Assembly: GCA_017428635.1 (NCBI GenBank)
Contig: JAFRQK010000035.1
Span: 12,632 to 76,631 of the forward strand
Direction: 5' to 3'
DNA from: Clostridia bacterium
Lineage (GTDB): Bacteria; Bacillota; Clostridia; Oscillospirales; CAG-272
Length of the DNA: 64,000 bases
Part shown: positions 34,615 to 54,607 of the stretch, in pieces
Layout of the letters: every line of letters starts with the position of its first letter
Numbering within the stretch: position 1 is the stretch's first letter
Translations under genes and position numbers: made by a program
Notes under the pieces: generated by a model
Databases searched by the model: none
What the model was told of the DNA's origin: nothing
The model's input: the letters and a program-made list of their open reading frames with translations, nothing else

Positions 34615-34831
34615 AAGACCGCCTCCTTTCGATAAATCTACATAATACTCCATTATATAAAGTATTATACACTAAAGGGGGAGCCAAGTCAACCGCGAAG
34701 GGGGCGTGAGACACGCTTTTTCGGGCCGTTTCTGAGGCGCTCCCGAGGCGCCGAAAAAATTTGAATTTGTTGTTGACAAAAGGGCGGGGTTATAGTATAA
34801 TACACTTTGCCGACGGGAAACCGGGGGCAAT

Positions 34832-34913
34832 GCGAGAGTGGCGGAACTGGCAGACGCGCACGTTTGAGGGGCGTGTGGTTCACACCGTACGGGTTCAAGT
34901 CCCGTTTCTCGCA
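34832..34913 (+). tRNA. tRNA-Leu(GAG), CCA not encoded
   Basis: Acceptor GCGAGAG/TTCTCGC, anticodon stem CACGT-TTGAGGG-GCGTG, long variable arm, GGTTCAAGTCC; TTGACA/TATAAT promoter upstream. Confidence 0.96.
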
Positions 34914-35138
34914 TAGAAAAAGGGCACTCGAAGAAGTGCCCTTTTTCTATGCGAGAAATAAGGAACGGGACTTGAAAAAGCGGCGGTAGTGAATGACAGC
35001 CCGGTGGGCTGTCAGAGCCGCCGCCTGACCGAGCGCCCGTCATCCTTTCGTATTTTGCGAAAGGATGACTCGCGGGCGCGAGAATCAAGTCCCCCGCGCC
35101 AAAGGCGCGGCAAAATTGAAATGCAGTAACCTTCATTT
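34914..35138 (+). other. tRNA-trailing structured element, copy 1
   Basis: Inverted copy of the tRNA 3' end, nested hairpins, second T-arm copy; homologous to the element after tRNA-Ser. Confidence 0.8.
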
Positions 35139-35348
35139 TGAGTATCCGGGTTTTTGTCCCGCTGCCCCGCGCCAAAGGCGCGGCATATTCGATTCTCGCC
35201 ATTCTTCATTTTGACCACCCCTGAACCGTTTTCATTACGTTTTTTCCAAAATGCAAGCGCTGCTTGACAAAATTCAAAGCAATTTATATTGAATGCAAGT
35301 AACAATTATAATATAATAAAACCGAAATTTTTGTCAGGGAGCGGCACA

Positions 35349-53036: not shown

Positions 53037-53193
53037 GGTTTACCTCCTTTCCGACTGAAAGGCCTTTCACCCTTATACCCGCAAAAAAACCGGATTGATC
53101 ACATTTTTTGAAAAATTTTGAAAAAAGGTTATAAGTTACGTTTTTGAATGAGGTGACTGCATTCTGAGCTGGCTGATACTGCGAGGCGGAGGA

Positions 53194-53240
53194 GGCTTCC
53201 CCTTGAGGGGAAGCTGTCACCGGAGGTGACTGATGAGGTG
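53194..53240. repeat. Clostridial REP-like double hairpin
   Basis: GCTTCCCCT-tg-AGGGGAAGC followed by GTCACC-gga-GGTGAC-TGATGAGG. Confidence 0.6.
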
Positions 53241-53242
53241 AG

Positions 53243-53472
53243 AAAGGGTACTGCATTTTGAGCAGGCTGCTCCTGCAGGGCAGGAGCAGAGGGATTCGAG
53301 TCGCGCTCCCGCGAGCTCGTTTTTCGCTGAACGCGAAAAACTCACGGTCGCTTGGTCGGGGAGGCGGGAAAACAGTCCCCCGGACTGTTTGCTGACACGC
53401 CTCCCATTCGAATCCCTTCCTTATGCTCTCCGAACGGAAAAAGGAGCCCACTTTGTGGCTCCTTTTTCCGTT
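53243..53472 (-). other. tRNA-trailing structured element, copy 2
   Basis: Same architecture and linker motifs as 34914-35138, with arms matching tRNA-Ser. Confidence 0.8.
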
Positions 53473-53561
53473 CGGAGAGAGAGGGATTCGAACCCTCGAA
53501 ACCGTTTTGCGATTTACGCGATTTCCAGTCGCGCGCCCTCGACCAACTAGGCGACCTCTCC
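53473..53561 (-). tRNA. tRNA-Ser(GGA), CCA not encoded
   Basis: GGAGAGG/TCTCTCC acceptor, CGCGA-CTGGAAA-TCGCG anticodon arm, long variable arm, GGTTCGAATCC. Confidence 0.96.
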
Positions 53562-53689
53562 GTGCCCCTAACCGGACGTGTGGTATTATAACATAGAATA
53601 TAATCTTTTGCAACACTTTTTTCAAAACTCCGGGGGCCTCGGAGCACTTGTGAGTTTGCTTCCGATATGGTAAAATATATCAAACGGAG

Positions 53690-54607
53690 GTGATAAAAAC
53701 GGCAAGCGATAAATCTCTCGTTATAAGAGCGATCTCATCCGACGGCTCGGCGCGTATCGTGTTCTGCGACAGCACGGCGATCGTGCGGCGCGCCTGCGAG
53801 ATACACAAAACGGCGAAGACGGCGACCGCCGTCCTCGGGCGGTGTCTGACAGCCGCCTCGATGATGGGCTCGCTTCTCAAAGACCGCGACGATTCCCTGA
53901 CGCTGCGCTTCGACGGCGACGGCCCCGCGGGCAGCGTCGTATGCGTCAGCGACTACAAGGGCAACGTGCGCGGATATATGGATAACCCTTCGGCGGAACT
54001 GCCGCCGAACAAGGCGGGCAAGCTCGACGTCGGAGGCGCGATAGGAAAGGGATCGCTTTACGTGATCCGCGACCTCGGGCTGAAGGAGCCGTACGTCGGC
54101 GCGTCCCCGATAGTGACGGGCGAGGTCGGCGACGACGTGACGGCCTATTTCGCCAATTCCGAGCAGATACCGACCGTGTGCGCCGTGGGCGTGCGTGTGG
54201 GCCGCGACAATATGTGCTTTGCGGCGGGCGGTTTTCTGATCCAGCTTTTGCCGGGAGCCGACGACGAAGTGGCCGAGATAATTGAAAAGAACGTCAGCGG
54301 GATGAAAAGCGTCTCGGAACTGATCGCATCCGGCGTTTCGGGCGCCGAGATCATCGCTCAGACCTTCGCCGGTATGGAATACGAGACGTTCGACGAATTC
54401 GACGTCGGTTACGTCTGCGCCTGCTCGCGCGGCAGATACCTCTCCGCGCTCGCGTCGCTCGGCGGGAAAGATCTCGACGAGCTGATAGCCGACGGCAGTC
54501 CCGTCGAGACGGGATGCCTGTTCTGCGGCAAGAAATACGTTTTCAAAATCGAAGAGATCCTCGCCGAGAGGGACAAAAAGAAAAAGGAGAAAAAAGAAGA
54601 TGAGTAA
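53690..54607 (+). CDS. hslO: Hsp33 redox chaperone
   Basis: GKLDVGGAIG, YFANSEQIPT, AGGFLIQLLPGA, CXC...CXXC. Confidence 0.95.
   Translation: MIKTASDKSLVIRAISSDGSARIVFCDSTAIVRRACEIHKTAKTATAVLGRCLTAASMMGSLLKDRDDSLTLRFDGDGPAGSVVCVSDYKGNVRGYMDNPSAELPPNKAGKLDVGGAIGKGSLYVIRDLGLKEPYVGASPIVTGEVGDDVTAYFANSEQIPTVCAVGVRVGRDNMCFAAGGFLIQLLPGADDEVAEIIEKNVSGMKSVSELIASGVSGAEIIAQTFAGMEYETFDEFDVGYVCACSRGRYLSALASLGGKDLDELIADGSPVETGCLFCGKKYVFKIEEILAERDKKKKEKKEDE

Follow-up and report, generated by a model that had tools for sequence, protein, structure and literature searches.

The tRNA-Ser(GGA) gene in a 64-kb stretch of DNA from a Clostridia bacterium (Oscillospirales, CAG-272; assembly GCA_017428635.1, contig JAFRQK010000035.1, positions 12,632 to 76,631, this whole stretch being referred to hereafter as the window) is followed by a non-coding repeat unit whose arms match the very tRNA that it adjoins, and which represents a new and widespread variant of the rare tRNA-distal repeats known from the tyrT locus of Escherichia coli. 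The family is real and stands far above chance. Each unit is built from an inverted copy (A') of the 3' strand of the tRNA, a structured core that can be swapped, and a direct copy (A2) of the same tRNA segment, A' and A2 being predicted to pair with each other as a helix, P1. We tentatively favor, with a confidence slightly short of even, the interpretation of these elements as locally copied non-coding repeat units that are maintained by recombination behind the intrinsic terminators of stand-alone tRNA genes. The units would then be made, and kept matched to their tRNA, by DNA-level copying from the adjoining tRNA gene, a process for which no dedicated enzyme would be needed.

The Ser(GGA) locus, with tRNAs called by ARAGORN as in the rest of the window, is composed of the following parts, given in the direction of transcription:

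53585-53613, minus strand: sigma-70-like promoter of tRNA-Ser(GGA), TTGCAA, 17 nt, TATAAT (consensus scan, 10/12 matches)
53472-53562, minus strand: tRNA-Ser(GGA), stand-alone, without encoded CCA (ARAGORN; Rfam tRNA model, 54.9 bits)
53473-53492, minus strand: A, the segment of the tRNA itself from which the downstream copies derive (T-loop, T-stem 3' strand, acceptor 3' strand and discriminator)
53433-53472, minus strand: intrinsic-terminator-like hairpin with a GC stem, an A-tract before and a T-tract after it (read from the sequence; paired in the folds)
53426-53432, minus strand: A'acc, reverse complement of the acceptor 3' strand and discriminator, with 1 mismatch in 8
53418-53425, minus strand: linker of 7-8 nt that separates the inverted segments, ATAAGGA in this copy (family consensus ATTGAAA)
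53407-53417, minus strand: A'T, reverse complement of the T-stem 3' strand and T-loop, 5' strand of helix P1
53360-53405, minus strand: HP2, a GC-clamped hairpin that has an internal loop and, at its apex, a conserved palindrome (91.5-98.7% of cells paired in helices 2-3)
53355-53359, minus strand: J2/3, conserved junction (YGAC) leading into P3
53302-53354, minus strand: P3, an irregular helix whose base holds two tandem purine-purine (G.A-type) motifs and whose distal hairpin varies
53289-53299, minus strand: A2, direct copy of the 3' part of the T-loop and of the T-stem 3' strand, 3' strand of P1
53268-53288, minus strand: HP4, a hairpin conserved in position and not in sequence
53246-53267, minus strand: small hairpin and conserved tail (..CTCAAAATGCAGTAMC..)
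53194-53245, minus strand: separate interspersed repeat module, outside the tRNA-matched unit

The hairpin at 53433-53472 was not listed by a simple terminator scan; judged from its letters it is palindromic and could act in both directions, and the adjacent A'acc abuts it and lengthens its palindrome. A 10-mer from the T-loop and T-stem of this tRNA occurs three times in the window against 0.36 occurrences expected by chance, once in the tRNA (53482-53491, minus strand), once inverted (53408-53417, plus strand) and once as a direct copy (53290-53299, minus strand). The order of parts is identical in the trailer of a second gene, tRNA-Leu(GAG) (34914-35131, plus strand), which hosts a sister copy:

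34831-34914, plus strand: tRNA-Leu(GAG), host of the sister copy (ARAGORN)
34914-34949, plus strand: terminator hairpin
34950-34976, plus strand: A'acc (34950-34957), linker (34958-34964) and A'T (34965-34976)
34980-35082, plus strand: HP2 (34980-35024), J2/3 (35025-35029) and P3 (35030-35082)
35085-35131, plus strand: A2 (35085-35093), HP4 (35094-35110) and tail (35111-35131)

There, a 9-mer of the tRNA is likewise found three times in the window (tRNA, inverted and direct) versus 0.32 expected. At both loci the unit is single, without tandem repetition, and lacks any open reading frame (ORF), as does the interval of about 180 nt that separates the repeats. The hairpin of the Leu HP4 (35094-35110) recurs ~70 nt downstream, at 35165-35182.

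An earlier note, made from the sequence alone, had described the Ser trailer as the second copy of a tRNA-tailored element, and proposed a structural alignment of the two trailers. Their homology is confirmed by a covariance model, R1, that we built from four copies in the assembly and that spans A' through A2, as the two trailers score 144.6 and 145.1 bits (E ~1e-34), a result that disposes of the note's own condition for refutation. The tailoring was borne out as well, since each of the 36 tRNA-linked copies described below matches its own host. The distal copy, which had been thought to reproduce nearly all of the T-arm 3' strand and of the acceptor strand, does so exactly for the T-loop and T-stem 3' strand (53289-53299, 11 nt), but not for the acceptor part, which shows 5/8 mismatches and belongs instead to the 5' arm of HP4 (53268-53288). 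The limits of the element are revised too: it reaches past the start that had been given for it, HP4 and the small hairpin and tail (53246-53267) being conserved from copy to copy, and the stretch 53194-53245 forms a module of its own.

In the genome of origin (G000), R1 yields 19 matches at E <= 1, eight of them full length (E <= 8.6e-23). In seven cases a tRNA gene ends 22-41 nt upstream (Gly-CCC, Leu-GAG, Ser-GGA, Glu-CTC, Leu-TAG, Ser-TGA and Val-CAC), and the eighth sits behind the terminator of a protein gene. The spread of the family among genomes is patchy, with matches in 21 of 61 relative genomes at E <= 0.01 (7 of 19 within the genus, G000 not counted), and in 31 of 151 genomes of the order, each >= 90% complete, at E <= 1e-5, which represent 12 of the 26 sampled families. 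Among 56 matches with flanking sequence in 11 genomes, ARAGORN places a co-oriented tRNA ending 22-41 nt upstream of 36. The 20 others comprise eight with less than 130 nt of upstream sequence, one later unit whose tRNA lies 178 nt upstream, and 11 more: three follow a tRNA 3' end missed by ARAGORN, five are later units of arrays, one follows a copy of a tRNA-Met end inside an array, one is a partial copy after another repeat module, and one follows the terminator of a protein gene. Similarly, of 20 distant copies sampled across the order, 15 come directly after a tRNA and two are later array units. The family has no Rfam entry: searches of the whole window at gathering scores, of 53100-53600 at E <= 10, and of the alphaproteobacterial and alternative-core loci described further below gave only tRNA and chance-level matches. 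A literature search by sequence string gave no relevant paper, and a search by words retrieved only a 2026 preprint on other tRNA mimics which, by its accessible part, is unrelated.

The arms of the units follow their hosts closely. A'T, compared with positions 54-65 of its own host tRNA, shows no mismatch in 22 of the 36 tRNA-linked copies and at most 2 in 12 in all of them, and A2 shows 0-3 mismatches in 10. Differences between species in the tRNA are followed by the arms, as seen for the T-loop of Arg-ACG (A or G), the acceptor of Gly-CCC (T or C), and the acceptor of Ser-GGA in four other species; the arms of the terminator also co-vary between G000 and the related genome G001. The host tRNAs span 20 anticodons, belong to class I and class II, and come with or without an encoded CCA. 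A preference for class II or CCA-less tRNAs, which both hosts in the window had suggested to the earlier note, is therefore not supported: the hosts include Gly, Glu, Gln, Val, Arg, Thr, Pro, Ala, His and Met tRNAs, and CCA is encoded in other genera. Two forms of the unit can be distinguished. The long form, found in the genus, carries A'acc and a linker of 6-7 nt (consensus ATTGAAA; in one species the linker equals the complement of the T-loop), and the order-wide short form of ~105 nt has only a variable spacer ahead of A'T. In the short form, A2 usually runs on through acceptor, discriminator and CCA to a second, often different terminator, and the complete 3' end, CCA included, recurs in about 15 of the 20 distant copies, although its acceptor part has no pairing partner in the unit. 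Copying explains such repeats; pairing in P1 does not. The copy that lies at a non-tRNA terminator has kept a Leu-like P1, and its terminator-adjacent segment mirrors the local upstream flank.

Three other explanations of the arms were considered and rejected. A' is not a direct copy of the 5' strand of the tRNA, since its T-loop part at the Leu locus is clearly a reverse complement, and since G.U positions are made Watson-Crick. A primer-binding site for mature tRNA does not fit, as CCA is not covered. Mimicry of a minihelix substrate of RNase P or RNase Z was dismissed, as the pairing of the long form runs through the discriminator and the acceptor part of the short form lacks a partner.

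RNAalifold and the covariance model give the core as a three-way junction formed by P1 (A'T with A2), HP2 and P3. Across 79 aligned matches, read on the tRNA-sense strand, standard pairs occupy 93.7% of cells versus 72.0% in shuffles and both sides have changed in 37 of 42 pairs, in an alignment that was fitted to the model and in which many rows are related copies, so that these figures lean towards structure. When the partners are slid by 1-3 columns, pairing falls to 29-47%. At paired positions G.U exceeds A.C (83 versus 32 overall, 59 versus 14 outside P1), which points to the tRNA-sense strand as the one that folds. The base of P3 reads C-GA-NN-GA-NNN opposite NNN-GA-NN-GA-G; its NN pairs co-vary (GC/GC versus GG/CC), GA..GA is exchanged for AA..GC, and the whole has the appearance that would be expected of two tandem sheared purine pairs.

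These features raise the possibility, which we regard as real though distinctly less probable than not, that the unit is a functional cis-encoded RNA, acting either as a switch or insulator for read-through transcripts or as a stable RNA with a tRNA-like 3' end comparable to rtT RNA. A' would then have two possible partners: the 3' half of the tRNA, onto which it could zip so as to extend the terminator hairpin and unfold the tRNA, or A2, with which it would make P1 and thereby the junction. Selection for these pairings would preserve the match. The paired fraction and the double changes on the tRNA-sense strand, the surplus of G.U, and the conserved tandem G.A motifs with their co-varying flanks all speak for such a role, as do the way in which A' follows acceptor and T-loop differences between species, the occupation of the same loci across species, and the report, in the accessible parts of two sources, that the rtT RNA of E. 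coli is a processed product of equivalent repeats (PMC3318445; bioRxiv 10.1101/2024.07.17.603846). Predicted energies would also make the two folds real competitors: for the Ser read-through transcript, -162.4 kcal/mol is computed for the whole versus -143.1 kcal/mol for the tRNA cloverleaf plus the P1-closed trailer, and for the Leu transcript -165.9 versus -147.5 kcal/mol, so that these nearest-neighbor calculations favor pairing of A' with the tRNA's own 3' half. Against a functional RNA stand the position of the unit behind a good-looking intrinsic terminator with no promoter of its own in sight, the acceptor-CCA part of the short-form A2 that was copied without a pairing partner, the copy at a non-tRNA terminator, and a behavior typical of repeat DNA, as cores are swappable, nested with other repeats and homogenized within genomes, and arrays are variable.

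This behavior is visible at several levels. The cores group by genome and not by tRNA: a hairpin in P3 is common to all copies of G014 and absent from the other genomes examined, and HP2 variants differ between orthologous Leu-GAG loci, that of G000 being unlike its orthologs. Between G000 and G001, HP4 has been exchanged for an unrelated hairpin in otherwise near-identical loci. The frame can also exist without the core, since four genomes (G019, G004, G008 and G007) have another structured insert in the tRNA-Ser(GGA) trailer, placed after the terminator, a matching A'acc, the linker and A'T. This alternative insert (L191, L193, L196 and L192, in G019, G004, G007 and G008, respectively) consists of two hairpins closed by a GCCG/CGGC stem, one of them with a GCAA loop, and has no match in Rfam. 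In G005, G009 and G016, tRNA-Ser(GGA) is followed by a plain terminator. Within G000, the space from A' to an A2-like segment with HP4 is taken up by yet other inserts in the trailers of Thr-GGT and Gln-CTG, and those of Met, Asn and Trp (C40:21790-21864, minus strand; C46:122505, minus strand; C26:14618, plus strand) belong to other unit families with a different insert, which show direct copies of the tRNA 3' end plus a terminator, in tandem for Met, and no inverted copy. Tandem arrays of the type "tRNA 3' end, terminator, A', core" are frequent, both elsewhere in this genome and in further genomes, and a 47-nt identical repeat that includes the terminator is found at tRNA-Leu(TAG).

Three lines of evidence lead us to favor copying over selection for pairing: A2 repeats the acceptor through CCA without a partner in the unit, the copy at the non-tRNA terminator mirrors its own local flank while keeping its inherited Leu-like P1, and both arrays and concerted evolution occur frequently. 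Gene conversion or recombination of the 3' end of the tRNA with its direct copy would generate the tandem arrays and keep A2 identical, and template switching of the "palindrome correction" type across the terminator hairpin would make A'acc and extend it. Core modules may be exchanged among loci by gene conversion, which would account for their concerted evolution. In a read-through transcript, the tRNA-sense strand would fold into the junction, with an outcome that, by analogy, might resemble the rtT RNA of the E. coli tyrT repeats.

Several points weigh against this copying scenario, in addition to the covariation already described, with its lean towards structure. A conserved linker of 7 nt lies exactly at the boundary between acceptor and T-stem in many tRNA loci, which template switching in one step does not explain. 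The same tRNA loci are occupied across four species, the frame is genus-wide, non-Watson-Crick motifs are conserved, and G.U outnumbers A.C; together these look like selection on the folded sense strand, and the function of an RNA may thus be the cause of the matching. The first arrival of units with correct arms at 20 tRNA species is not explained by local copying alone. Finally, no empty site was found for comparison: the tRNA-Ser(GGA) locus is occupied in all close species, an unoccupied version was sought in close relatives and none was found, and the three species that lack the frame have diverged too far for insertion junctions to be defined in them.

The direct repeats at tRNA ends also call to mind integration. 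The earlier note had compared the distal copy to an attR remnant, a comparison that is upheld insofar as the copy of many relatives extends through acceptor, discriminator and CCA to a second terminator, but fails in that no integrase or other ORF lies inside and the units measure only ~170-230 nt; its remark that the inverted copy goes beyond an ordinary integrase att duplication is supported. A version of this idea that we judge a serious, though rather unlikely, rival is a non-autonomous miniature integrative element, in which a small circle carrying the tRNA 3' end, terminator, A' and core would be integrated at a matching T-loop by a recombinase encoded elsewhere. The tRNA would be regenerated and its original 3' end (A2 with the second terminator) displaced, P1 being, in single-stranded DNA, a folded copy of the target site. 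Consistent with it are the direct repeats from T-loop to tRNA end (18-22 nt, with CCA where encoded), the two often differing terminators, as expected if the unit brings its own, the 47-nt repeat with terminator at tRNA-Leu(TAG), the tandem arrays at tRNA genes and the one copy at another site, the patchy distribution, and the presence of five tyrosine recombinases in G000. Yet none of the copies seen has a linked recombinase, every lineage would have to carry an arm specific to its tRNA, and this for 20 anticodons, all four close species have the same loci filled with no empty or polymorphic site found, viral contigs and phage records give no matches, and a double-stranded circle of ~200 bp is an unlikely intermediate. 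A mere scar left by a decayed prophage or island, or a chance resemblance, is hardly credible: integrase scars do leave a direct repeat of the tRNA 3' segment, but they do not account for a family of dozens of copies in which a structured core is conserved and an inverted copy is present, and the motif counts are far above chance.

No recombinase was seen inside or beside the units, and neither of the two reverse transcriptases nor any of the five tyrosine recombinases of G000 was seen next to one. In this genome (96.19% complete), no match to the Y1 transposase domain PF01797 (REP-associated tyrosine transposases, RAYT; REP, repetitive extragenic palindrome) and no TnpB-type protein was detected, and its single IS110 element lies on another contig, with no core nearby, and is unrelated to the units. 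A bridge RNA of IS110 or an omega RNA of TnpB was rejected because there is no adjacent recombinase or nuclease gene. Viral contigs contain no exact HP2 match and phage records give no blastn match. The units also differ from miniature inverted-repeat transposable elements (MITEs), as their arms change from one host tRNA to another and their flanks show no duplication of a fixed length. Elsewhere in G000, downstream of tRNA-Pro(GGG), we noted a long, structured-looking non-coding stretch (C78:63200-63650) and an IS110-family transposase gene (C78:63900-65200); this tRNA has a plain terminator and no unit.

Parts of the core are also found outside the family. In species-representative genomes, 76 loci contain an exact match to the apical 27-mer of HP2, among them loci of Rhodobacterales and a few other Proteobacteria, where there are one or two HP2 per genome and not beside tRNAs. 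In two cases, such as L115:150-195 (Loktanella) and L136:7023-7068 (Thioclava), the ~45-nt HP2 palindrome breaks the apparent frame of an IS3-type or IS5-type transposase, and a locus in Albidovulum (L164:160-800) shows a tandem unit of ~520 nt with a layout of P1, HP2 and GA-hairpin. HP2 may thus be an independently moving hairpin module. A bolder reading, to which we would give only a slim chance, is that of a programmable element guided by base pairing: a single-stranded RNA or DNA of ~200 nt, folded as a rod of junction, P1, bulge, acceptor helix and terminator hairpin, would home to or act on the matching tRNA or its gene through sequence identity only, P1 being a folded replica of the T-loop region. 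The junction, with parts also present in Alphaproteobacteria, would be a catalytic or protein-recruiting module, and the E. coli tyrT repeats would be a relic of such a system.

The junction further invites comparison with self-cleaving RNAs. The unit resembles the type III hammerhead in having a three-way junction with its strands in the same order, a core rich in GA, and one helix whose base holds tandem G.A pairs; unlike the hammerhead, the unit departs from the core consensus (CUGANGA, GAAA, NUH site), has no conserved cleavage site and has no Rfam match. A self-cleaving ribozyme or unit-length circular RNA, with a rod-like fold of core, P1, bulge, acceptor helix and terminator hairpin, is accordingly very improbable. 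Its topology and motif order (YGAC-C-GA, helix, GA-G-AA) do resemble a hammerhead core, and tandem units could give multimeric transcripts, but neither hammerhead nor any other ribozyme family is matched in Rfam (53100-53600, E <= 10), the positions equivalent to C3 and U4 vary, the core has an extra C:G pair, and no conserved U-H cleavage site exists between P1 and HP2.

The surroundings of the unit are ordinary, the neighboring genes encoding Hsp33, an extracytoplasmic function (ECF) sigma factor and a helix-turn-helix (HTH) protein. The distance from hsp33 to the tRNA-Ser(GGA) promoter is ~1.3 kb in G001, G002 and G014, and the two are adjacent in G000 (locus L040/L011 of G001 compared with 53562-53690 of the window). 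The module that follows the unit (53194-53245, minus strand) reads ..TCTCACCTCATC.., a hairpin, then ..CTTCCCCTCAAGGGGAAG.., and is present at five other places in G000 (C44:12486, C14:58778, C9:66944, C41:111226 and C76:29267); at other loci this interspersed module has the HP2/GA-hairpin core inserted in the opposite orientation. Assembled contigs of three RNA runs and one DNA run cover heavily only this neighboring module (53193-53240), where very high depth comes from many contigs, of gut DNA runs as well as RNA runs. In run X19, whose RNA library may include DNA, one contig connects 53149 directly with 53223, leaving out the 73 nt (53150-53222) that lie between direct repeats of 10 nt; it represents an insertion/deletion variant of the module that follows the unit.

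Collectively, these observations change the standing of tRNA-distal repeats of the tyrT type, which had looked like a curiosity of one locus. The logic of direct and inverted copies of a tRNA end is now seen at many loci per genome, with 20 anticodons and in at least 12 families of a single gut-dwelling order, and the three-way junction with its abundant covariation provides a comparative data set with which the origin and expression of the units, and possible effects on tRNA maturation, on read-through into downstream genes and on recombination at tRNA genes, can be tested. For annotation, the units deserve attention as they resemble integrase att scars and tRNA fragments, and break metagenome contigs.

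Among known systems, the duplications of att sites by tyrosine integrases and their deleted derivatives (cis-mobilizable elements) resemble the units in having a direct repeat that starts in the T-loop, in leaving the tRNA intact and in accreting in tandem at tRNA genes. In contrast to these, the units are only 170-230 nt long, contain no ORF, have no linked integrase, and hold an inverted copy of the target within a conserved fold. REP elements and bacterial interspersed mosaic elements (BIMEs), other mosaic extragenic repeats and MITEs are, like the units, multi-copy, intergenic, hairpin-rich, modular, nested, subject to concerted evolution and located near terminators. They differ in that the P1 arms of the units vary from copy to copy and equal the adjoining tRNA, and in that the units show no fixed terminal inverted repeat or target-site duplication, and G000 no RAYT/Y1 transposase.

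The closest known system is the distal 178-bp repeat of the E. coli tyrT/tyrV locus (rtT RNA, gene rttR, Rfam RtT). These repeats were first described between 1978 and 1991 and are decades old in the literature. In E. coli K-12, the last 19 nt of tRNA-Tyr are present in three exact copies, and each unit has a 10-nt inverted copy of the same region, which in the predicted fold pairs with the direct copy and closes an insert of ~90 nt. Both systems are non-coding, lie directly 3' of a tRNA on the same strand, and have an inverted and a direct copy that close an insert. The tyrT units are tandemly repeated; in the present family the units at the two loci of the window are single, and arrays are seen at other loci and in other genomes. 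The tyrT units end in a direct copy of the 3'-terminal segment of the tRNA, whereas the copy in the window has only 11 nt of it and many relatives have the full 3' end up to the discriminator or CCA. The inserts show no detectable homology, R1 scoring 3.5 bits (E 1.2) at the E. coli locus and the Rfam scans of the window giving no RtT match. As far as the available text of the sources goes, one tyrT repeat unit is reported to encode rttR (PMC3318445) and rtT RNA to be a processed product of these repeats (PMC3318445; bioRxiv 10.1101/2024.07.17.603846), while how this product acts is still given as unknown (bioRxiv 10.1101/2024.07.17.603846). In E. coli the arrangement is confined to one locus, whereas in the present family it is repeated at many tRNA loci per genome, with every unit, unlike those of tyrT, lying behind an intrinsic terminator and built on a three-way junction that is common across loci and genera.

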